Assembly (NCBI GenBank): GCA_947085985.1
Contig: CAMTYL010000004.1
Location: forward strand, 150,885 to 214,884
DNA length: 64,000 nt
Source of the DNA: an uncultured bacterium
GTDB lineage: Bacteria > Patescibacteriota > Minisyncoccia > Phycocordibacterales > Phycocordibacteraceae
Direction: 5' to 3'
Under the pieces are notes generated by a model that saw only the letters and a program-made list of their open reading frames with translations, searched no databases and had not been told where the DNA came from. Of this stretch, positions 11,268 through 56,627 are shown piece by piece (positions within the stretch are counted from its first letter, which is position 1; the number at the start of each line of letters is the position of its first letter). Position numbers and translations under genes: made by a program.

Positions 11268-12641
11268 ATGTCTACACTAACGGGGGGCGCCAGCAGGCTA
11301 GAGCCTAAAGAGTTGTGGGAACAGGTGCTGACACAGGTTGAACTTTCAGTGTCGCCGGCAAATTTTAATACATGGTTTCGGGAGTCCTCCATTGTAAAGG
11401 TAGAAGAGGGAATTGTGTTTGTTGGTGTACCTAGTCAGTTTTTTCGCGACTGGTATCTAAAGAAATTTCACTCGCTTCTCCTTAAAATAATTCGTGGCAT
11501 TTCGTACGAGTACCGGAACATTGAGTATCAGATTGTTAAAGATGACCGCCGCAAGCCCAAAACAGAGCGTCGCCAGCCGACTCAGCAGGTGGCCGAGCTG
11601 CCGCTTGATGATTTTTATATAAACAAGAGCGACAACCTAAATCCACGGTACACCTTTGAGTCTTTTGTGGTTGGTGGCTTTAACGAGCTGGCATATACCG
11701 CTGCGCAGGCTGCTATAAAGCGGCCAGGTATAACCTACAACCCGTTCTTTATTTACGGAGAAACAGGGCGCGGAAAGACGCACCTTATCCAAGCAATTGG
11801 AAACCAGTTCAAGAGAATGTACCCAAACCGAAAGGTGTTCTACCTAACGTCAGAAAAGTTTGGAACAGACTACACTGACTCTCTTCAACAGGGAACTGCT
11901 AACCGTTTTAAGGAAAAATATCGCCAGTTTGATTTGCTCATCATGGACGATGTGCAGTTCCTTTCTAAGAAGGAAAAGATGCAGGAGGAGCTGTTCCATC
12001 TCTTTAACGCCTTCCACGACAACAATAAACAAGTAATTTTCTCCTCAGACCGTCCGCCGGTAGCTATTCCTGATATTGCAGAGCGTCTGCGCGGCAGGTT
12101 TGCGAGCGGAATGGCAGTGGATATTGGTGAGCCCGACATGGAAAGCCGTATGGCAATCGTCCGAAAAAAGGCGGCTGTTCATGGCGTTAACCTTTCCGAC
12201 GAGGTAGTGGAACACATAGCAACGTCTATTTCTGGTTCTATTCGCGAACTTGAAGGTGTTATTAACTCTGTAGTGTGCCACACACAGGTTAAAGGCACCC
12301 CGCCAGACCTAGCAGAGGTGCGTCAGTCCCTGCGCTCTTTCGCACGTCCTCAAAAGACTGTGTCCGTGAAGCATGTTGTTTCTAAGGTTGCTGAGTATTA
12401 CGGTATCGATGAAGAGAGTATTTACGAAAAGACGCGTAGGAGGGAAGTGGTTCGTCCTCGCCAGGTGATTATGTATCTACTTCGCGAAGACTTTAGTGTT
12501 TCGTATCCGAACATAGGCTCTAAGCTTGGTGGCCGCGACCACACTACCGTCATTCATTCGTGCGAGAAGGTGAAGCGAGAGATTCTAGAGAACCACGAAC
12601 TGGCAAAGGAGATTGCTGAAATACGAACCCTTTTGGTCTAA
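11268..12641 (+). CDS. dnaA: chromosomal replication initiator DnaA
   Basis: Walker A GETGRGKTHLIQAIGN and C-terminal DNA-binding segment GSKLGGRDHTTVIHSCEKV. Alternative GTG start at 11205. Confidence 0.9.
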   Translation: MSTLTGGASRLEPKELWEQVLTQVELSVSPANFNTWFRESSIVKVEEGIVFVGVPSQFFRDWYLKKFHSLLLKIIRGISYEYRNIEYQIVKDDRRKPKTERRQPTQQVAELPLDDFYINKSDNLNPRYTFESFVVGGFNELAYTAAQAAIKRPGITYNPFFIYGETGRGKTHLIQAIGNQFKRMYPNRKVFYLTSEKFGTDYTDSLQQGTANRFKEKYRQFDLLIMDDVQFLSKKEKMQEELFHLFNAFHDNNKQVIFSSDRPPVAIPDIAERLRGRFASGMAVDIGEPDMESRMAIVRKKAAVHGVNLSDEVVEHIATSISGSIRELEGVINSVVCHTQVKGTPPDLAEVRQSLRSFARPQKTVSVKHVVSKVAEYYGIDEESIYEKTRRREVVRPRQVIMYLLREDFSVSYPNIGSKLGGRDHTTVIHSCEKVKREILENHELAKEIAEIRTLLV

Positions 12642-26478: not shown

Positions 26479-26675
26479 GTGCGCCTACCTGGGACGTGAT
26501 TACACTTCTCGCTCCTTACAGGAGCAGTACACCTTGTGGAGATTTTGCTTCATGACTTCGCAAAATCTGCTCACAAGGTCTTCGAGCCCAGGACGCAGGC
26601 TTCCCAAGCCTGCTTAGGCGCACAAATTAAAGAACCGCCAGTGGGGCGGTTCTTTAATTTGTGCGCCTACCTGGG
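26479..26675 (-). repeat. tRNA-3'-associated structured element, Lys copy
   Basis: 15-nt direct repeat GTGCGCCTACCTGGG at 26479-26493 and 26661-26675. 23-bp hairpin GGCGCACAAATTAAAGAACCGCC-agtg-GGGCGGTTCTTTAATTTGTGCGCC overlaps the tRNA 3' end. GCAGGCTT-ccc-AAGCCTGC hairpin. Terminal GTG-TAAT-CAC hairpin. Confidence 0.6.
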
Positions 26676-26734
26676 CTCGAACCAGGGACCGTCTCCTTAA
26701 AAGGGAGCTGCTCTACCAACTGAGCTATAGGCGC
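26662..26734 (-). tRNA. tRNA-Lys (anticodon TTT)
   Basis: Hand-folded cloverleaf: GCGCCTA acceptor, D-arm GCTCAGTTGGTAGAGC, anticodon loop CTTTTAA, T-arm CCTGG-TTCGAGC-CCAGG. Confidence 0.85.
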
Positions 26735-29949: not shown

Positions 29950-30139
29950 CTCGGTAGGAACCGGCGAGTACGCCTTTCGGTCACACATAAATCTCTGCTA
30001 AGATTTTGCGCGACCCCCACTCGCCGTCGACACGGCTCCGTGCTTCGATTCCTACACGTGAGCCTCCCAGGCTCACTCGAGAGCACCAAATGAAAACAGC
30101 CCTAACTGGGCTGTTTTCATTTGGTGCTCTCGGTAGGAA
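29950..30139 (-). repeat. tRNA-3'-associated structured element, Arg-GCG copy (element D)
   Basis: 11-nt direct repeat CTCGGTAGGAA at 29950 and 30129. 24-bp hairpin GAGAGCACCAAATGAAAACAGCCC-taact-GGGCTGTTTTCATTTGGTGCTCTC (30079-30131). GAGCCT-ccc-AGGCTC hairpin. Core shares GAATCGAA, GCGAGTGGGGGTCGCG and CGAAAG-GCG-TACT-CGC with the other copies. Confidence 0.6.
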
Positions 30140-30196
30140 TCGAACCTACATTGCATCCTCCGCAAGGATGCGTCCTATCCATTGAACGACGAGAGC
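30125..30196 (-). tRNA. tRNA-Arg (anticodon GCG), CCA encoded
   Basis: Hand-folded: acceptor GCTCTCG/CGAGAGC, anticodon stem CATCC/GGATG with loop TTGCGGA, T-arm GTAGG-TTCGATT-CCTAC, discriminator A then CCA. Confidence 0.75.
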
Positions 30197-30896: not shown

Positions 30897-30950
30897 ATAA
30901 ATGTAATACTAGCACTCGTGAGTTGATGTAGATGGAGTAATGCACCAAAA

Positions 30951-30980
30951 GATAAAACCCGCCATGTGGCGGGTTTTATC
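30951..30980. terminator. bidirectional terminator after tRNA-Ser
   Basis: GATAAAACCCGCCA/TGGCGGGTTTTATC perfect palindrome. Confidence 0.65.
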
Positions 30981-30985
30981 TTTTG

Positions 30986-34459: not shown

Positions 34460-34765
34460 ATGAAAAAATTATTTCCCTCACTACACACGGTTAAAGAGCT
34501 GTTTAAGGTACGGACGCACACGCACCCCGCGCGCGATTGGTTTGTGTTGCTTGGTCTCACTGCACTCCTAATAGGCCTAAGTATTGGTTGGAATGTATGG
34601 AGGTACCTTTCAGTTACCAGCACTCCTGCAACAGAGAGCGAGACAGTGGCAATACCTGAGTTTGATACGAGTGCCGTGGACGCTGTGGAGAAGGTGTTTG
34701 AAGAACGCGCCGCTGAAGCGCGTCGCTACCAGGACACCTATCGTTTCGTTGACCCAAGCCGATAA
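34460..34765 (+). CDS. small membrane protein in the pilMNO cluster
   Basis: 101 aa with one TM helix (FVLLGLTALLIGLSIGWNVW). Confidence 0.35.
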   Translation: MKKLFPSLHTVKELFKVRTHTHPARDWFVLLGLTALLIGLSIGWNVWRYLSVTSTPATESETVAIPEFDTSAVDAVEKVFEERAAEARRYQDTYRFVDPSR

Positions 34766-34784
34766 CCTGGGCTACTGTAGAGGA

Positions 34785-34856
34785 GCCCCCATAGCTCAAT
34801 GGATAGAGCAGGAGACTTCTAAGCTCTTGATGTAGGTTCGATTCCTGCTGGGGGCA
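34785..34856 (+). tRNA. tRNA-Arg (anticodon TCT)
   Basis: Acceptor GCCCCCA/TGGGGGC, D-arm GCTCAATGGATAGAGC, anticodon loop CTTCTAA, T-arm GTAGG-TTCGATT-CCTGC. Confidence 0.85.
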
Positions 34857-35043
34857 CAAAAATGAAAAACTAAGACGGCGTCTTAGTTTTTCTATTTTTT
34901 GTAGGCACCAGCAGGAATCGAAAGCCGGAGCGATACGCGAGCAGCAGCGAGCGTCGCGAGGTGGGGTCGCGTGCATTTGCGAGTGACGACGAGCAAATAA
35001 CAGGTGACCGAAAGTGGTACTCCACGGTTCCTGCTCCAGGCAC
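34857..35043 (+). repeat. tRNA-3'-associated structured element, Arg-TCT copy (element A)
   Basis: AAAATGAAAAACTAAGACG hairpin overlaps the tRNA 3' end. Core has GAATCGAAAGCCGGAGCGAT, GCGAGGTGGGGTCGCG, GCGAGTGACGACGAG and CGAAAG-TGG-TACT-CCA-CGG. Ends with a degenerate copy of the tRNA 3' end (TTCCTGCTCCAGGCAC). Confidence 0.6.
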
Positions 35044-35052
35044 ATAAACACG

Positions 35053-35080
35053 AAAAGGACCGGCAACGGCCGGTCCTTTT
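35053..35080. terminator. bidirectional terminator after tRNA-Val
   Basis: AAAAGGACCGGC-aac-GCCGGTCCTTTT. Confidence 0.65.
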
Positions 35081-35089
35081 CTGTGCGGG

Positions 35090-35162
35090 TGGGCGATAGA
35101 GGACTCGAACCTCTGACCATTCCGGTGTAAACGGAGTGCTCTACCAACTGAGCTAATCGCCC
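35090..35162 (-). tRNA. tRNA-Val (anticodon TAC)
   Basis: Acceptor GGGCGAT, D-arm GCTCAGTTGGTAGAGC, anticodon loop TTTACAC, T-arm AGAGG-TTCGAGT-CCTCT. Confidence 0.85.
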
Positions 35163-35235
35163 GCAGGAGAACAATACCGCAGGTATGAAATTTTGGAAAG
35201 CAACCAACGTCGGCTATGCTTGGTTCTTATAGACT

Positions 35236-35514
35236 ATGAACGAGCGCATAGAGGCAAAGGTTAGTGGCCGAGTGCAAATGGTGATGTATCGCGATTTTGC
35301 TACACGCAAAGCGCGTGGGCTGCGCCTCGTGGGGGAAGTGCAAAACCTACCTGACAAAACGGTGCGCGTGGTCGCCGAAGGACCGAAAGAGAAACTGGTT
35401 GTGTACACACAAAAGCTGAACAAGGGCTCATTACTCTCGCACGTGACAAACGTAGAGGTCTCGTGGCTACCTGCGCAGGGAACACACACTACCTTTTCAA
35501 TTAACTATGACTAA
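35236..35514 (+). CDS. acyP: acylphosphatase
   Basis: VSGRVQMVMYRDFATRKARGLRLVGEVQNLPDKTVRVVAEG matches the acylphosphatase signatures. Confidence 0.8.
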   Translation: MNERIEAKVSGRVQMVMYRDFATRKARGLRLVGEVQNLPDKTVRVVAEGPKEKLVVYTQKLNKGSLLSHVTNVEVSWLPAQGTHTTFSINYD

Positions 35515-36196
35515 AGGCGAGGTACCGAAGGCTATCGGGGTGATTCTTGATGGTAACCGCCGCTGGGCGAGGGAGCAGGGCCTACCTCCGTTTGAAGGTC
35601 ACCGTGAAGGTTCCGAGCGAGTAAAAGATCTGGTGCGGTGGGCGCGAGAAGTTGGTATCGGAACAGTGTATATTTATGCATTTTCAACAGAAAACTGGAA
35701 CCGAGCAGAAGAAGAAGTCAGTTATCTCATGAAGCTGATGGCAAAATTCTTTTCCGAGGGGATTGTGGATGAAATAGAAAAGGAAGACGGCAGGGTTGTT
35801 TTCTTGGGCGACCGGGGCCGCATACCGCCGGAGCTTGTTTATGAGATGGAACGCGCCGAGGAGCGGACGCGTAATGGAAAGGGTGGGACGCTTGCGGTCT
35901 GTTTGTCATACGGAGGACGTGCGGAAATTGTGGCGGCAGCAAACAAGCTCATTCGGGAAGGGAAAGAAATTGAGAGCGAAGAGGAATTTTCGCGAGCATT
36001 ATGGAGTGCGGACCTTCCTGATCCAGACCTCATCATTCGCACGAGTGGGGAGCAGCGCCTCTCAGGGTTTCTCACCTGGCAGTCAGTGTATAGCGAGCTG
36101 TTTTTTACCGACACCAAGTGGCCAGCGTTCACTAAGGAGGAATTCCTTTCTATCCTTGAGGAGTACAGTGCGCGAGAGCGCCGTAAAGGAAAATAG
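35507..36196 (+). CDS. uppS: isoprenyl transferase (undecaprenyl-diphosphate synthase)
   Basis: AIGVILDGNRRWAREQGL and FSTENWNR motifs. Confidence 0.85.
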   Translation: MTKGEVPKAIGVILDGNRRWAREQGLPPFEGHREGSERVKDLVRWAREVGIGTVYIYAFSTENWNRAEEEVSYLMKLMAKFFSEGIVDEIEKEDGRVVFLGDRGRIPPELVYEMERAEERTRNGKGGTLAVCLSYGGRAEIVAAANKLIREGKEIESEEEFSRALWSADLPDPDLIIRTSGEQRLSGFLTWQSVYSELFFTDTKWPAFTKEEFLSILEEYSARERRKGK

Positions 36197-36218
36197 GTAT
36201 CTGTGATAGGGTGAGCTC

Positions 36219-36959
36219 ATGAACCCTGAAATCCTCTATGAGGACGACAATATTGTCGCTATCAATAAGCCGGCGGGCACCATGACGCACCCAGATGGGC
36301 ACACCTCCGACGAAACGGTGAGTGATTGGTTTGCGCGTGCGTACCCAGCTTCACGCGAGGTAGGGGAGACGCAGCGCCTACCTGACGGCACGGAGATAGC
36401 GCGCCCTGGCGTAGTGCATCGTCTTGATCGCGACACGTCGGGTGTGTTGATTTTAGTAAAGACTCCTGAGGCTCACGTGTTCTATAAGGCAGCATTCCAA
36501 GAGCGGCTCACCAAGAAGACGTATCTTGCGGTGGTGTACGGCACGCTAAAAGAAGAGAAGGGAACCATTGAGTTTGCTATTGGCCGTTCTCGAAAGGATT
36601 TCCGCCTACGTTCCGCACAGCCAAAGGCGCGCGGCACGCTGCGGGAGGCCATCACGCACTACGAGGTTATAGATAGTATCGGCACGCATTCGCTCGTGAA
36701 AGTAATGCCAGAAACGGGCAGAACGCATCAAATCCGTGTCCACCTGAAAGCACTCCATCATCCGGTTGTCTGCGATCCGCTGTACGCGATTGGAAAACCG
36801 TGTGATTTGGGGACCTCGCGACTGGCCCTTCATGCAGTGAGCCTGGTCCTACCACTCCCAGAAGGAGGCACTGTTCGCGTACAAGCACCAGTCCCGGGCG
36901 ATCTTGCCAACGCCATTTCGGTCTTTCCAGAAGCCGCGTCAGTTATTGCCTCATTCTAG
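36219..36959 (+). CDS. RluA-family pseudouridine synthase
   Basis: RPGVVHRLDRDTSGVLILVKT catalytic Asp motif and HQIRVHL. Confidence 0.8.
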   Translation: MNPEILYEDDNIVAINKPAGTMTHPDGHTSDETVSDWFARAYPASREVGETQRLPDGTEIARPGVVHRLDRDTSGVLILVKTPEAHVFYKAAFQERLTKKTYLAVVYGTLKEEKGTIEFAIGRSRKDFRLRSAQPKARGTLREAITHYEVIDSIGTHSLVKVMPETGRTHQIRVHLKALHHPVVCDPLYAIGKPCDLGTSRLALHAVSLVLPLPEGGTVRVQAPVPGDLANAISVFPEAASVIASF

Positions 36960-36983
36960 GCCGCATGGTAGAGTGCGCGAATC

Positions 36984-37493
36984 ATGCATACCGTAATCAC
37001 CCCCGTACCAACCAATGAACGAGCCAGTCTCGGCATTCGTTCCGGCGACACCGTTCGCGTCCACCAGAAGGTGGTAGAGAAGGGTAAGACCCGTCTCCAG
37101 GTATTTGAGGGCCTTGTTATTGCCGTTAAGCACGGCACAGAGCCAGGAGCTACCTTTACCGTACGCGCCACCCTATCAGGTGTTGGTGTAGAGAAGATTT
37201 TCCCTCTATACAGCCCAGTTATTGATAAGATTGAGATCACCAAGCGCTCTAAGGTTCGCCGTGCAAAGCTCTACTTCATCCGTGAGAAGGTTGCTCGCGA
37301 GGTACGTCGCCAGCTTCGCAACATGCGCATGGTGAAGATCTCCACCGATGACTTCAAGAAGGAGGAGGCTCCTATCGTTGAGGAGACTGTAGAAGAGGCA
37401 ACTGAAGCTCCTGAGGTAGTGGTTGAGGCTACTGAGACCGAGGAGGTGGCTGCCGCGACCGAAACTACTGAGGAAGAGAAGAAGGACGCGTAA
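36984..37493 (+). CDS. rplS: 50S ribosomal protein L19 with acidic C-terminal extension
   Basis: [27 protein letters not shown]19 core. E/T-rich tail. Confidence 0.9.
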
Positions 37494-37514
37494 TACGCCC
37501 CAGCATATTTGTAA

Positions 37515-37556
37515 AAAATGAGCCGGCCCGCTATAGTAAGCGGGCCGGCTCATTTT
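37515..37556 (+). terminator. intrinsic terminator after rplS
   Basis: AAAATGAGCCGGCCCGC-tatagta-AGCGGGCCGGCTCATTTT. Confidence 0.7.
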
Positions 37557-37571
37557 GAGCTCGTATGCCAT

Positions 37572-37656
37572 GCCCAGGTGGTGAAATTGGTATACACGCA
37601 TCCTTGAGGTGGATGTGGCTTCGGCTGTGGAGGTTCAAGTCCTCTCCTGGGCACCA
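37572..37656 (+). tRNA. tRNA-Leu (anticodon GAG), CCA encoded
   Basis: Anticodon loop TTGAGGT, long variable arm TGGCTTCGGCTGT, T-arm GGAGG-TTCAAGT-CCTCT, acceptor GCCCAGG/CCTGGGC. Confidence 0.85.
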
Positions 37657-37852
37657 AATGAAAAAACGCCTTCGGGCGTTTTTTCATTTGGTGCCCAGGA
37701 AGCAGGGTGTCTGCACACCCTGCAGGAGGACTTGAAAGCCGGAGCGATGCTTTGCTCAGCAGAGCAAAGCCGCGAGGCGGGGCTGCGACCGAGCCGAGTG
37801 ACGACGAGGCGAGAGTTGTAGCCAAAAGCGTAATCGCGTGTCCTCTCCTGGG
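37653..37852 (+). repeat. tRNA-3'-associated structured element, Leu copy (element B)
   Basis: 25-bp hairpin CCTGGGCACCAAATGAAAAAACGCC-ttcg-GGCGTTTTTTCATTTGGTGCCCAGG. GCAGGGTG-tctgca-CACCCTGC hairpin. Core carries GGAGGACTTGAAAGCCGGAGCGAT, GCGAGGCGGGG, GAGTGACGACGAG and AAAGCG-TAAT-CGC. Direct repeat GTCCTCTCCTGGGC at 37639 and 37839, exactly 200 bp apart. Confidence 0.65.
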
Positions 37853-37898
37853 CCGCATTTCATCATTTTCCGAAAAACGTGCTATAACGCATCTACAT

Positions 37899-37972
37899 GG
37901 CGGCTATAGTTTAGTGGTAAAACTCAGGTTTGTGGAGCCTGTATCGAGAGTTCGATTCTCTCTAGCCGCCCA
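37899..37972 (+). tRNA. tRNA-His (anticodon GTG) with G-1
   Basis: G-1 followed by GCGGCTA acceptor and discriminator C. Anticodon loop TTGTGGA. T-arm GAGAG-TTCGATT-CTCTC. Confidence 0.85.
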
Positions 37973-38175
37973 GATATGAAAACCGCCTTTGGCGGCTTTT
38001 TCATATCTGGGCGGCTAAGCAGGTAATCTGCATTACCTGCGAGAGAGAATCGAACGCCGGAGCATGTTTCTCTCAGTAGAGAGAAACAGCGAGGCGGTGC
38101 CCAGAGCAAGCCGAGTGACGACGAGGCGCAGACTCGCGGGCGAAAGTGGTAATCCACGTTTCTCTCTAGCCGCCC
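37973..38175 (+). repeat. tRNA-3'-associated structured element, His copy (element C)
   Basis: Hairpin TAGCCGCCCAGATATGAAAACCGCC-tttg-GCGGCTTTTTCATATCTGGGCGGCTA. GCAGGTAAT-ctgc-ATTACCTGC hairpin. Core carries GAGAGAGAATCGAACGCCGGAGC, GCGAGGCGGTG, GAGTGACGACGAG and CGAAAG-TGG-TAAT-CCA-CG. 17-nt direct repeat TTCTCTCTAGCCGCCCA at 37956 and 38159. Confidence 0.65.
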
Positions 38176-38286
38176 AAATCAGCCAACCCAGAAGTGAATA
38201 CTTCCGGGTTGTTGCTGTTTGCAGAAGCTAGCTTGTCTTTTGGTCTGGTTGCACATACCATTCCCTTCGGAAAAGGGGGTATCAAC

Positions 38287-38859
38287 ATGTACAAAGTTTT
38301 TGCAGGGTTCAAGGTTCCCGAAATCTTGAACCCGTTTGCGGAAAATATCGACCGACTCGTGGTGGTACACGGCGGACCTGTCGTGCGGCGTAAACACCCA
38401 CTACACGTCACCGTCATGGCGCCACGAACCGTACGAGATCAGCAGCGCCATGAGCTCGAAGCGTTTGCACAGGAGTTCAATACTGACTACGGAAATGTGC
38501 CGTGTCGTATTGCGTCCCTTCAGCGCTACGAGCACCGCAGCAAGAAGTTCTTTGTTGCAAGTCTCACGGGGCAGCAATTGAGCGACACCATTGATCACTT
38601 TCACCACGAGCTGCATAGGAGATTTTCCTTCACACGGCGTCAACATGAGGGAACAAAGCCTCACATAACGCTGGTCAGCTCCAAGCACACGCGAAGGCAA
38701 GAGGTGTTTGACCGCGTGGTCAGTGCCGCTCACAGTATTGAGTACCCGCGAGAGCCTCTCCGTCTCCCGCACATCGTTCTTCATGTCCACAAGGAGGGAA
38801 CAGAATTACCGCACGTTTCGCCGCCACCAGGTGAACCGCACGCTGGGTGGCAGCCATAG
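38287..38859 (+). CDS. 2H phosphoesterase superfamily protein (LigT / 2'-5' RNA ligase-like)
   Basis: Two H-x-T/S-x motifs (HVTVM; HITLVS) at the expected spacing. AAGGGGG RBS before ATG 38287. Confidence 0.6.
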   Translation: MYKVFAGFKVPEILNPFAENIDRLVVVHGGPVVRRKHPLHVTVMAPRTVRDQQRHELEAFAQEFNTDYGNVPCRIASLQRYEHRSKKFFVASLTGQQLSDTIDHFHHELHRRFSFTRRQHEGTKPHITLVSSKHTRRQEVFDRVVSAAHSIEYPREPLRLPHIVLHVHKEGTELPHVSPPPGEPHAGWQP

Positions 38860-53282: not shown

Positions 53283-56200
53283 ATGGCCGAACAAGAGAAA
53301 TCAGAGCTTGTTGCAAGAGAAGAGGCAATACTCGCTTTTTGGAACAAAGAGCAGATTTTTGAGAAGACACTCACCAAGCCCGCGCCGAAGGGAGATTTTG
53401 TATTTTATGAGGGCCCACCAACTGCAAACGGGCGCCCTGGTATCCACCACCTAGAACCACGATCATTCAAGGACGCGCTTCCGCGCTACAAAACTATGCG
53501 TGGCTATCGTGTGCCGCGTCGCGCGGGGTGGGATACGCACGGTCTCCCGGTTGAGCTTGAGGTAGAGAAACAACTTGGCTTCAAGGGTAAGCAAGATATT
53601 GAGACGTACGGCATTGCGGCCTTCAACAAGAAGTGCCGCGAGAGCGTGCTGACCTATATTGATGAGTGGAAGGCGTTCACTGAGCGCATCGGCTACTGGG
53701 TAAACTTCAACACTGCCTACTTTACGTACAACGCTCCCTACATGGAGTCCCTGTGGAACATCATGAAGAAGGTAGACACTGATGGCAGGCTCTACAAGGA
53801 CTACAAAGTACTGCCGTGGTGTGTGAAGTGCGGGACAGCACTTTCTAGTCACGAACTCGCCCAAGGGTACGAGGATGTAAAGGATTTGTCGCTCACGGTG
53901 AAGTTCAAAGTGGTAGGTGAGGAGAATACCTACTTCCTCGCATGGACCACGACGCCGTGGACTCTGCCTGGGAATGTGGGGCTCGCGGTGGGGAAGGATG
54001 TTGTGTACGGAAAGTACACGAATAACGGAGAGACTGTCATTATTGCAAAAGCATTGGAGCGAAAGCTCGGTGAAGGGTGGGTGCTTGCTGAGGAAGTCGC
54101 TGGTAGTGAGCTTGTTGGAAAATCGTACGAGCCACTCTACCCATTTGCAAAGGACATTGCTGCAAAAACAGAAGTAGAAAAGTTTGCGAATGCATACAAA
54201 GTGTACGCGGCAGATTTCGTAACCACCGAAGACGGGACGGGTATCGTACACACCGCCGTCATGTACGGACAAGAAGATTTTGATTTGGGACAAAAGGTTG
54301 GTCTGCCAAAGGTGCACCTGGTAGCACCAGACGGCACCTTCGTACAAGGCACGGGAATGTTTGAAGGGAAGTCAGTCATTGATGCGGAAACAAATGTTGA
54401 GGTATTGAAGGACCTGCAGGCCCGCGGACTCTACTTCTCTAAGGAGAGTTACAACCACTCCTACCCACACTGTTGGCGCAGCAAGAACCGCCTCATCTAC
54501 TACGCACGCGATTCGTGGTACATCCGCATGCAGGATTTGCGCGATACGCTCATTGCGGAGAACAAGAAGATTAATTGGGAGCCCGCGCACATTCGTGACG
54601 GGCGAATGGGCGAGTGGCTTTCTAATGTAAAGGACTGGGCTATTAGTCGTGAGCGCTACTGGGGTACGCCGCTTCCCGTATGGCGAAGTGAAAATGGAGA
54701 AGAACAGCTGGTGATTGGTTCGGTAGAAGAGTTAAAGAAGTATACGAAGCGAAGCGGAAATCGGTACGTGGCTATGCGCCACGGGGAATCAGAGAACAAT
54801 GTCGCAAACATTGTGGACTGCACTAACGAGAAGAAGTGGCCGCTGACACAGAAGGGTCACGAGCAGGTACGCTCTGCCGCCGTTTCACTCAAAGAAAAGG
54901 GAATTGAACTGATTTACGCATCTCCGTTTGAGCGCGCACAAGAAACGGCGCGCGTAGTAGCGGCTGAGCTCGGTCTTTCCTTAGAAAGTATCGTCACTGA
55001 CGAGCGTATAAAGGAAATAAATGCAGGAACCCTTTGTGATAAATCACTAGACGAATTCCTAGCGTACCGTAAGGTGCATGCGTACGAAGAGCCGCTGCCG
55101 GGAGGCGAGAGTCATCTAGACGCGAAGCGTCGCTTTGGTGCTTTCTTGTACGACCTGGAGGAACAGCACGCGAACAAAACCATACTGATTGTCACGCACG
55201 GTATTGGGCTTGAGATGTTCATGCCGGTCATTGCGGGAAGTGATGCGCGCGCTACCCAGGCAATGGTAGAGAACGACCTGCCGGTAAATGCAGAAGTGCG
55301 CGAGCTTGATTTCGTGCCACTGCCACATAACGACGACTACGAGCTTGATCTGCACCGCCCATATATTGATGATGTAGTGCTCGTAAGTGAGAAGGGAACC
55401 AAGCTTCGCCGTGTAAAGGAGGTAATGGATGTCTGGTTTGACTCAGGCGCCATGCCCTTTGCACAGGCTCACTATCCGTTCGCAAAAGAGGCGCCAGCAT
55501 TTCCTGCCGACTTTATTTCAGAGGCTATTGATCAGACGCGTGGCTGGTTCTACACACTGCTTGCCGTTTCTGTATTGATGGGGAAGGGGACGCCATACCG
55601 AAACGTAATTTGTCTCGGACACTTGCTTGATGAGAAGGGAAAGAAGATGAGTAAGTCTTTGGGGAACGTCATTGTTCCAGCGGACGCTATTGCAACGTAT
55701 GGTGTGGATACGCTGCGCTTCTGGATGTACTACGTCAATCAGCCTGGCGACTCAAAGAACTTTGACGATAAGACCGTGCGCGAAGCCGCTCGTGTTATCT
55801 CGTGGCTAGATAACAGCGCCAAATTCTACGAACTCTTTGCAGCAGGAAGTCAGTCATCACAAAAGACCGCACTTGATGAATGGATGCTCGCGCGCACTAA
55901 TCAAACAGTGAAGACTGTAACGGAGGCCATGGACCGCTATGACCTCTACACAGCGTCGCGCACCATCGCGCTCTTGCTGGAAGATGTCTCGCAGTGGTAC
56001 GTGCGCCGTATTCGCGATAGAGCGCGCGACGGTGATGCTGCTGCACTTTCCACACTCCGCGAAACACTCAAGACCTGTGCTCTTCTCATTGCGCCACTTG
56101 CTCCGTTTGTGGCAGAAGATGTGTACCGAATTGTAAAGAGTACAGAGGACGCAGAGAGTGTGCATCTAGCTAACTGGCCTGAGGTACAGGCGGGTATCTT

Positions 56201-56627
56201 TGACGTACTTACTGGTAAGGGAAAGAAAGAAGCGGCACTTATAGAAGAAATGGTGCGCGTGCGCACGCTTACGTCAGAGGCACTGATGCTTCGCCAAAAA
56301 GCTGGAGCTAAGGTGCGGCAGCCGCTCGCATCACTTTCAATTGTTGGCGAACTTTCGCTGGAGATGCAAAGAATACTCGCAGACGAGCTTAATGTGAAGG
56401 AAATACGAACCGGTGCGAAGGAGCTCGCGCTTGATACGGTCCTTACCCCAGAACTTATTAAAGAGGGAGATGAGCGCACTCTTGCGCGAGCAGTTGCAGA
56501 GGCACGCAAAAGTGAGGGGTATGCACAGAAGGACCAGGTGAAGGTAGAGATGCGTGAGGACGGTGCGCACAGTGCAGAGATATCCAGTGGGGTGGTGAAG
56601 TTTTCTCTAATACGCGATGCGGCATAA
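53283..56627 (+). CDS. ileS: isoleucine--tRNA ligase carrying an inserted histidine-phosphatase (PGM-like) domain
   Basis: HIGH ([11 protein letters not shown]), editing-domain [19 protein letters not shown] and KMSKSLGN motifs. About 190 extra residues (494-680) have RHGESENN and IVTHG motifs. Confidence 0.9.

Follow-up and report, generated by a model that had tools for sequence, protein, structure and literature searches.

A short hairpin, which we call P5, stands at the 3' end of a family of small sequences that follow tRNA genes in the stretch of DNA analyzed here, a 64,000-nucleotide (nt) segment (hereafter the window) from an uncultured bacterium of the Patescibacteriota (assembly GCA_947085985.1, contig CAMTYL010000004.1, positions 150,885 to 214,884 of the forward strand). 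We find that P5 is a genuine hairpin maintained by selection on its pairing, and that it is the last helix of a fold of 130-210 nt, consisting of P1, hpA, P2, P3, P4 and P5, which lies 3' of tRNA genes. The sequence that folds in this way is inserted inside the tRNA gene, in the T-loop, and the gene is restored by a copy of its 3' half that the inserted sequence brings along. Weighing the observations described below, we lean towards a structured mobile element that bears a guide, has no protein gene and probably acts as RNA, with P5 as a hairpin at the periphery of its junction. Within this element, the hairpin is a real, if modest, component.

The window is a segment of a bacterial chromosome that encodes, among others, PolA, PBP1, a MurE-like ligase, PilM, UppS and IleRS. 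It contains seven tRNA genes (ARAGORN; Rfam), five of which (Lys, Arg-GCG, Arg-TCT, Leu and His) are followed on their 3' side and on the same strand by a related sequence of 170-210 nt. The 3' end of this sequence reads, in order, RAAAG, a hairpin with a stem of 3-4 bp and a loop of TAAT or TACT, then CG with one further nucleotide and finally a tRNA-derived direct repeat, and an invariant G-C pair closes the stem. A sequence-only reading of the window had already described the hairpin in all five copies, immediately before the repeat, and both its coordinates and its assignments of stems and loops are correct. Two details had to be amended: the stem includes the invariant closing pair and is accordingly 3 bp long in Leu and Lys but 4 bp long in the other three copies, and the flank said to be GAAAG throughout is AAAAG in Leu and GAGAAG in Lys. 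The motif AAGNNNTAMTNNNCG occurs five times in the window compared with 0.77 expected occurrences, a number reached in none of 100 shuffles, and three of the five are the element copies with 4-bp stems.

Further copies were collected with two scans, both of which left the 3' strand of P5 unconstrained. The first, which ran a gapped pattern against a single genome for each species, specified no more of P5 than its 5' half and its loop; the second, of metagenome contigs, specified only CRAAAG, left the hairpin free and yielded 58 more loci. A covariance model built from 14 copies then gave 80 copies, 68 of which are distinct; as these share ancestry, the covariation counts reported here are not counts of independent events. 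Retained complementarity in an expanded alignment had been named beforehand as the test of the hairpin, and it held: in 35 further distinct copies from other genomes, aligned by sequence only, the unconstrained strand pairs in 97-98% of cells. Specifically, 97.2% of the cells are paired in the 18 four-bp hairpins (72.8% in shuffles, 0/500; 24-68% with the partner strand slid) and 98.0% in the 17 three-bp hairpins (90.6% in shuffles; 0-80% with the partner slid). Both middle pairs of the four-bp stems covary (C-G 6, U-A 6 and G-C 5 at one; G-C 11 and C-G 7 at the other), and the three-bp stems vary at a single pair (C-G 11, U-A 6). The stem exists in at least seven versions (CG/CG, CGG/CCG, GCG/CGC, TGG/CCA, TG/CA, CCG/CGG and TCG/CGA), the loop being TAAT or TACT with one TACC, and the earlier argument for selection on compensatory stems, made from three versions, is much strengthened.

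P5 is an optional part of the element, which the sequence-only reading had missed: it is found in about 39 of the 68 distinct members and is missing from about 29. In the members that lack it, P4 directly abuts the repeat (..GUGAC/CGAUU followed by the 3' strand of the T-stem, the slash marking the boundary), while the members that have it read GUGAC-CGA-(AAG-stem-UAMU-stem-CGN)-UU. From this comparison, P5 is a module of 15-17 nt that divides a T-loop-like CGA/UU, and its position is the boundary between element and target. In four copies (the Leu copies of loci L197 and L214 and both copies of locus L161), its place is taken by an unrelated mini-hairpin with a GAA triloop, GCGAAGC or GGCGAAGCC. 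We also considered whether P5 is an intrinsic terminator and rejected this, as it is followed by CG and the T-stem repeat and by no T run, and as the terminator scan flags the palindromes directly after the tRNAs instead.

The architecture of the complete element can be described from its 5' end. It begins with t1, which starts at T-loop position C56/U59, extends to the 3' end of the tRNA and, as a replacement 3' half, preserves an intact gene, followed by a G+C hairpin between AAATGAAAA and TTTTCATTT, which the terminator scan predicts to be a bidirectional terminator. Two antisense segments follow, of which antiAcc is complementary to the trailer and the acceptor 3' strand, and antiT to the T-stem 3' strand and the T-loop (..GGAATCGAA); an AG-hairpin-CG unit, hpA, often lies between them, exactly at the boundary of acceptor and T-stem. 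The antisense is complementary to T-loop positions 54-60 and the T-stem 3' strand, and equally to the element's own 5' end. Next comes P3, whose base carries tandem G.A pairs (CGGAGC/GCGAG), then GGG, then the long irregular hairpin P4, often with a GAGUGACGACGAG loop, then GAAA. P3 and P4 make up the conserved core. At the end stand the optional P5 and the repeat t2, which is the displaced and decaying native 3' half; that the direct repeat has this origin, and that P5 lies within the T-loop-like sequence, had likewise escaped the sequence-only reading. Pairing of the antisense segments with t2 forms P2, and also P1 where t2 is complete, and thereby closes a junction from which P3, P4 and P5 radiate; pairing with t1 is the alternative. 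A second core, type B (ACCUUGYG..CRCAAGGU, GUAC and a UGUAA hairpin), with flanks and P5 as in the other core, is present in the Lys copy of the window, in locus L124 and in the Ser copy of L214. The tandem G.A pairs of P3 were compared with a kink-turn, and this assignment was dropped, because the bulge is a single G and not of three nucleotides.

Over the 68 distinct copies, 92% of the cells of the whole fold are paired, compared with 69% after shuffling and 35-45% when the partner is slid, and 26 of the 30 pairs show changes on both sides. Minimum-free-energy (MFE) folds of single sequences likewise give P1, hpA, P2, P3, P4 and P5, with z = -8.5 for His and z = -5.5 for Arg-GCG. On the tRNA-sense strand, G.U pairs outnumber A.C pairs by 126:30 in the helices of the fold, and one G.U pair is conserved in 51 of the 68 sequences. 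This excess means that it is the tRNA-sense strand that folds, as RNA or as top-strand single-stranded DNA (ssDNA), and not a duplex palindrome. Of the two options left by the sequence-only reading, a single-stranded, RNA-type structure therefore fits, P5 being one helix of a larger fold whose other helices contain tRNA-sense G.U pairs. In Rfam, the whole window matched only tRNAs at the gathering threshold; at E <= 10, a cmscan of the Leu and His copies and of the Lys copy produced, besides tRNA, only noise on the palindromes that resembled micro-RNAs, and neither core type was matched.

The insertion can be read directly from four syntenic loci, reached through homologs of MurE: L214 (93% protein identity), L215 (84%), L216 (79%) and L217 (75%). 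The genes around the elements are housekeeping genes in the same order in L214, L215 and L217, and the order of the tRNAs is common to all four loci over most of the region, L216 differing locally in both respects. The element is present at His, Leu, Arg-TCT and Arg-GCG in L214 and at Val, Ser(TGA) and Leu in L216. L215 has no copies, its spacers of 46-79 nt being too short, with a run of N (12368-12470; masked or unassembled) directly after tRNA-Lys, where an element would sit; L217 gave no match to the model, its spacer of ~275 nt after tRNA-Leu not having been examined for variant cores. At the empty Arg-GCG sites, the tRNA of L215 runs straight into the native terminator (AAAAGAAAAACCCCG.., common with rpsT) and that of L217 into a similar one, while in L216 a different terminator and a tRNA-Arg(CCG) gene intervene before it. 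At the filled sites of the window and L214, the native terminator comes after t2, which is truncated differently in the two. Consequently, both t1 and the terminator of the element came in with the insertion, and the native end was displaced and now stands as t2. Either junction allows the reading CGA/TT.

Several patterns speak of movement and turnover. The His core is identical in 130 of 130 positions between the window and L197, where the flanking genes are 75-78% identical, and the tRNA-Leu of the two is 86% identical in its 5' part and 97% identical from the T-arm to t2; judging from these alignments, we take both patterns as evidence of probably recent movement. The window and L214, at 93% protein identity, hold different subtypes at Arg-GCG. 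In the His copy of L214 (8964-9093, + strand), the upper stem of P3 is that of the Arg-GCG copy in the same locus (785-915, - strand), GTTTTGGTCAGCAGACCAAAAC, and the remainder matches the His core of the window, which indicates that copies within one genome exchange modules. Two complete elements stand in tandem after one tRNA-Glu in L124, and in L216 (7913-8200, + strand) tRNA-Ser(TGA) is followed by four successive remnants of the core 3' end with t2, a graveyard of repeated insertions. In L197 (~636-691, + strand), a 56-nt insertion lies within the GAGTGACGACGAG loop of the Leu element.

Other sites retain only footprints, that is, t1 and the terminator, sometimes with antiAcc: L214 Lys, the remnant behind the His element of the window and possibly the Ser site of the window. 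In L214 (12371-12420, + strand), nothing but a terminator palindrome with antiAcc (GTGCGCCTA) separates tRNA-Lys from the native flank, core and t2 being absent, and this terminator is unlike that of the Lys element in the window. The remnant in the window is the left part of an older, core-less element, which in L197 stands directly after tRNA-His, before the core. The tRNA-Ser(TGA) of the window lacks an element downstream (30930-30985, - strand), yet its terminator is the same as in L214, where antiAcc, hpA, a type-B core and a t2 remnant follow; it is either the footprint of a lost element or the state before insertion. Together with the empty relatives, the footprints show that the core is dispensable to the host and is lost by deletion. 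That the core is nevertheless conserved fits a selfish element, in which conservation reflects selection for the element's own spread.

In the scan of one genome per species, true relatives were found only in metagenome-assembled genomes (MAGs) of the Patescibacteria, namely in Saccharibacteria, Paceibacterota and Minisyncoccia. Overall, copies come only from Patescibacteria MAGs and metagenome contigs, always 3' of a tRNA gene and on its strand; more than 20 tRNA species serve as hosts, and the core is highly conserved across the classes of the Candidate Phyla Radiation (CPR). Window positions 34700-38300 had no megablast match in phage records, and viral contigs gave no match to the specific element pattern; 120 matches from a 14-mer scan of viral contigs were dropped as chance. 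Long autonomous versions were considered and rejected, since the tRNA 3' repeats of 105 tRNAs in the fetched loci lie only 116-263 nt downstream, and repeat distances in the kilobase range arose there only between similar tRNAs. Matches to the 5' half of the element alone were composite or degenerate copies, or chance. A Pfam search of 20 open reading frames (ORFs) of the window returned only housekeeping proteins (PolA, MurE-like, RuvA, RuvX, PilM, UppS, RluA-like, MscL and LigT-like), and neither these ORFs nor the four syntenic loci revealed a gene for a transposase, an integrase or a Rep protein.

If the element is active as RNA, its fold would operate in transcripts that start at the tRNA promoter and read through. 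The antisense segment, acting as a guide, might bring one or the other copy of the tRNA 3' half into alignment with P3 and P4 of the core, which would put the T-loop junction where cutting and joining occur for spread, while P5 may stack on P2 as a peripheral helix and stabilize or mark the junction. One could draw the unit from t1 to the core 3' end as a closed circle that bears three or four hairpin arms and would open at GAC/CGA or at P5-CGN/UU. A bolder proposal, which we regard as quite unlikely, is that such elements are small intron-like ribozymes of a new class, with a core of ~90-110 nt and a re-programmable antisense guide. They would cut and rejoin nucleic acid at the T-loop without an element-encoded protein, would keep the host tRNA functional by means of their own replacement 'exon' and would have the circle just described as their free form.

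A number of observations weigh against an activity as RNA, or against a central role of P5 in it. P5 itself has no G.U pairs, so that it cannot by itself be assigned to RNA or DNA, nor to a strand; being absent from some 40% of members and exchangeable for the GAA-triloop mini-hairpin, it is not essential to the basic mechanism; and the relatedness of the copies means that covariation counts overstate independent events. Furthermore, where t1 and t2 differ, the antisense fits t1 at least as well as t2 (of 21 informative cases, several of them alignment artefacts, t1 is better in 8, t2 in 9 and both are equal in 4), so that common descent, and not selection, may account in part for the P2 pairing with t2. 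Known ribozyme catalytic motifs were not found in the element. Finally, a strong predicted terminator lies between tRNA and core, and a consensus scan found no promoter-like site ahead of the core, which leaves read-through as the only source of core RNA.

The alternative that survives best, a serious one despite being unlikely in our estimate, is that the top strand folds as ssDNA. The element would then be a non-autonomous ssDNA transposon or an integrative circle, moved by a trans-acting HUH/Y1 transposase (IS200/IS605-, IS91- or Helitron-like) or by a recombinase, for example a Xer-like one, that acts on a folded ssDNA attachment (att) site, as in CTXphi; P5, or P4 where P5 is missing, would be the subterminal 3' hairpin recognized by the enzyme, and the hairpin of t1 and antisense a mimic of the target duplex. 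Three observations suit this alternative: the asymmetry of the helices is specific for a strand and not for RNA, a hairpin always lies 0-3 nt from the 3' boundary, and the terminator blocks transcription into the core. It can also draw on the CGA/TT reading of both junctions, on the long perfect palindrome of t1, terminator and antisense, which resembles a folded att site, and on the GTTC of the T-loop, a known IS91 target. Against it stands the core, a multi-helix junction with tandem G.A pairs, a conserved G.U pair and modular hairpin insertions, whereas the ends of ssDNA transposons are, to our knowledge, single hairpins. Likewise, the copies lie on both strands under a uniformly positive GC skew of the window, without a bias for the lagging-strand template, and such an origin is not favored by the lack of transposase, integrase and Rep genes among the scanned ORFs of the window and in the four syntenic loci, nor by the missing matches in viral contigs.

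We consider it very unlikely that the element is instead a tRNA-linked RNA of benefit to the host, such as a read-through fail-safe, an aid to 3' processing or a decoy that resembles tRNA, with P5 as a hairpin that binds protein or RNA and the repeat as a functional RNA strand. Its presence at five of seven tRNAs in the window and the conservation of its core across CPR classes would suit such a role, as would the mimicry of the cognate acceptor/T-stem stack by P1 and P2, including the G-1:C73 pair of His, and the retention of exactly the T-stem part of t2 in many old copies. Yet the close relative L215 is empty at every tRNA, L216 has the element at other tRNAs, cores are deleted while t1 and terminator stay, tandem arrays and graveyards occur in L124 and L216, and an identical core is found in divergent genomes; it is above all the empty relatives and the footprints that make a benefit to the host unlikely. 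Lastly, the other option of the sequence-only reading, in which a dimeric recombinase or regulator binds P5 as a palindrome of double-stranded DNA, would explain the short inverted repeat with its 4-nt spacer exactly at the boundary of element and target, but is scarcely credible for half-sites that vary freely while only their pairing, the loop and the closing G-C pair are kept, with arms of merely 3-4 bp in a hairpin that many members lack or replace by GCGAAGC.

Table 1. Host tRNA genes, element copies and their modules in the window (positions as counted in the window; modules on the - strand mostly run from high to low)
Feature	Position	Strand	Support or remark
tRNA-His(GTG), host gene of the copy first flagged	37900-37971	+	ARAGORN, Rfam
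His t1, last ~19 nt of tRNA-His	37953-37971	+	
His element, inserted DNA after tRNA end	37972-38159	+	covariance model 121 bits; fold z = -8.5
His terminator palindrome	37972-38007	+	
His antiAcc TGGGCGGCTA, then AG	38008-38017	+	
His hpA, then CG	38020-38039	+	
His antiT AGAGAGAATCGAA	38042-38054	+	
His P3	~38055-38097	+	
His P4	~38098-38141	+	
His GAAAG flank (junction GAAA 38142-38145)	38142-38146	+	
His P5 GTGG-TAAT-CCAC (stem 38146-38149 / 38154-38157), then G38158, T38159	38146-38157	+	sequence, MFE fold, covariation
His t2 TTCTCTCTAGCCGCCCA, displaced native T-loop-3'/T-stem-3'/acceptor-3' segment	38160-38176	+	
Remnant of older element: trailer hairpin, degenerate antiAcc TGCAGAAGCTA; then native upstream region of LigT-like gene	38177-38232	+	
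tRNA-Leu, host gene	37572-37656	+	ARAGORN, Rfam
Leu element	37657-37839	+	covariance model 107.9 bits
Leu terminator palindrome	37657-37689	+	
Leu antiAcc	37689-37699	+	
Leu hpA	37703-37722	+	
Leu antiT	37724-37736	+	
Leu core, then AAAA	37737-37823	+	
Leu P5 GCG-TAAT-CGC, then GT	37828-37837	+	
Leu t2 GTCCTCTCCTGGGC	37840-37853	+	
tRNA-Arg(TCT), host gene	34785-34857	+	ARAGORN, Rfam
Arg-TCT element	34858-35027	+	covariance model 117.5 bits; nearly identical L214 copy
Arg-TCT terminator palindrome, then degenerate antiAcc, no hpA	34858-34901	+	
Arg-TCT antiT, then core	34910-34922	+	
Arg-TCT GAAA	35010-35013	+	
Arg-TCT P5 GTGG-TACT-CCAC, then GG	35014-35025	+	
Arg-TCT t2 TTCCTGCTCCAGGCAC, acceptor part mutated from GGG to CCA	35028-35043	+	
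tRNA-Arg(GCG), host gene	30122-30196	-	ARAGORN, Rfam
Arg-GCG element, short-P3 subtype	29961-30121	-	covariance model 85.5 bits; fold z = -5.5
Arg-GCG terminator palindrome	30121-30089	-	
Arg-GCG antiAcc	30088-30078	-	
Arg-GCG hpA	30075-30059	-	
Arg-GCG antiT, then core	30056-30044	-	
Arg-GCG GAAA	29978-29975	-	
Arg-GCG P5 GGCG-TACT-CGCC, then GG	29974-29963	-	
Arg-GCG t2 TTCCTACCGAG, truncated; then 8 nt, then native rpsT-shared terminator	29950-29960	-	filled versus empty site
tRNA-Lys, host gene	26661-26734	-	ARAGORN, Rfam
Lys element, type-B core	26494-26660	-	
Lys terminator palindrome	26660-26625	-	
Lys antiAcc	26624-26615	-	
Lys hpA	26612-26596	-	
Lys antiT	26593-26581	-	
Lys type-B core (ACCTTGTG..CACAAGGT, GTAC, GCTCC-TGTAA-GGAGC), then GAGAA	26580-26511	-	
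Lys P5 GTG-TAAT-CAC, then GT	26505-26496	-	
Lys t2 CCCAGGTAGGCGCAC	26479-26493	-	

Directly after the His element lies a gene for a LigT-like 2'-5' RNA ligase/cyclic phosphodiesterase (38194-38859, + strand). The same gene is found at the empty sites of L215 and L217; the adjacency is therefore not specific to the element, and the gene is not part of it. Elsewhere in the window, a class I aminoacyl-tRNA synthetase resembling IleRS (53283-56627, + strand) has a histidine-phosphatase domain (His_Phos_1) inserted at residues 498-658. The anticodon GCG of one tRNA-Arg, in place of the ACG that is usual in bacteria, is kept in L214, L215, L216, L217 and L136.

If our reading is correct, the element would be a compact mobile element that spreads by a folded nucleic acid and a guide matched to its target, and not by an encoded enzyme, and that has colonized most tRNA species across a very large bacterial radiation. 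This would explain the duplicated 3' halves, long palindromic terminators and repeat graveyards of Patescibacteria genomes, and it adds a structured family to those without an Rfam match. Should catalysis or RNA guidance be confirmed, the element would offer a minimal natural scaffold for programmable insertion. On the practical side, its downstream repeats and antisense copies can mislead predictors of tRNAs, terminators and genomic islands.

Full-text literature searches returned no description of the element, only papers on anticodon-loop group I introns of Patescibacteria, and a comparison with known systems has to proceed by individual features. Miniature inverted-repeat transposable elements were rejected as a parallel, as the inverted pair of antisense and t2 is target-specific and as there is no duplication of fixed length, the repeat of 7-24 nt being the tRNA 3' end. 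The P2/P3/P4 junction of members without P5, with linkers of ~7, 3 and 1 nt, recalls the hammerhead ribozyme of type I topology, as do the GAAA linker before the last hairpin and the order of a hairpin followed by a strand that pairs with a 5' guide. The element lacks the hammerhead core, though: CUGANGA and the A15.1-U16.1 pair are both missing, the linkers being UCGAA(A)G, GGG and C/GAAA, and Rfam gave no match.

Group I introns of tRNA genes are abundant in Patescibacteria (PMC13011429) and hence share the host phylum and the kind of host gene with the element. They also resemble it in tolerating optional peripheral hairpins and loop insertions. The antisense of the element, complementary to both sides of the insertion point (AAUCGAA and the anti-T-stem) but equally to the element's own 5' end, may be comparable to their internal P1/P10 guide. 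In contrast to these introns, the element is inserted in the T-loop instead of the anticodon loop, and its t2 decays. An assignment to this class was rejected on three further grounds: Rfam Intron_gpI is not matched at E <= 10, and a core of ~85-110 nt leaves too little room for P3-P9; the repeat is preceded by G, T or A and not consistently by the G expected of omega-G; and exon ligation is contradicted by the many copies that combine a truncated or mutated t2 with an intact gene upstream. Indeed, with a full copy of the 3' exon and a terminator at the start of the element, splicing is unneeded for tRNA function.

Among DNA elements, IS200/IS605, IS91/ISCR and Helitrons have 3' hairpins that, like the guide RNAs of TnpB/IscB, lie a few nt from the 3' end, are strand-specific and belong to an RNA or DNA end that abuts target-derived sequence. 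The element has such a hairpin in P5 or P4, and its long direct repeat could be an element-borne copy and not a duplication. It differs from IS200/IS605, IS91/ISCR and Helitrons in its complex junction, in the combination of a long target-derived direct repeat with an inverted one, in the lack of a transposase in the window ORFs and the four loci, and in its occurrence in both orientations relative to replication. The folded phage attachment site (attP) of CTXphi-type integrative mobile elements exploiting Xer (IMEX) likewise consists of an inverted, target-like pair that folds into a duplex copy of the target, with both copies staying by the junction, but here the target is a tRNA gene and not dif, there is no phage genome, and there is an extra conserved core.

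In its layout, the element also resembles the integrative elements of tRNA genes; integrase-borne genomic islands and prophages reportedly integrate in the T-loop sublocation as well (K. P. Williams, NAR 2002). As in these, the direct repeat reaches from the T-loop to the tRNA 3' end or just past it, an element-borne copy restores the gene while the displaced native end stays by the native flank, and repeated insertion builds tandem arrays. Unlike these, the present element measures 130-210 nt and not kilobases, which makes it 100-fold smaller, and has neither an integrase nor any other ORF; it serves more than 20 tRNA species with one conserved core, and it contains an internal antisense copy of its target within a covarying multi-helix fold. 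On the strength of these comparisons, we rate it as apparently lying outside the known kinds of element.

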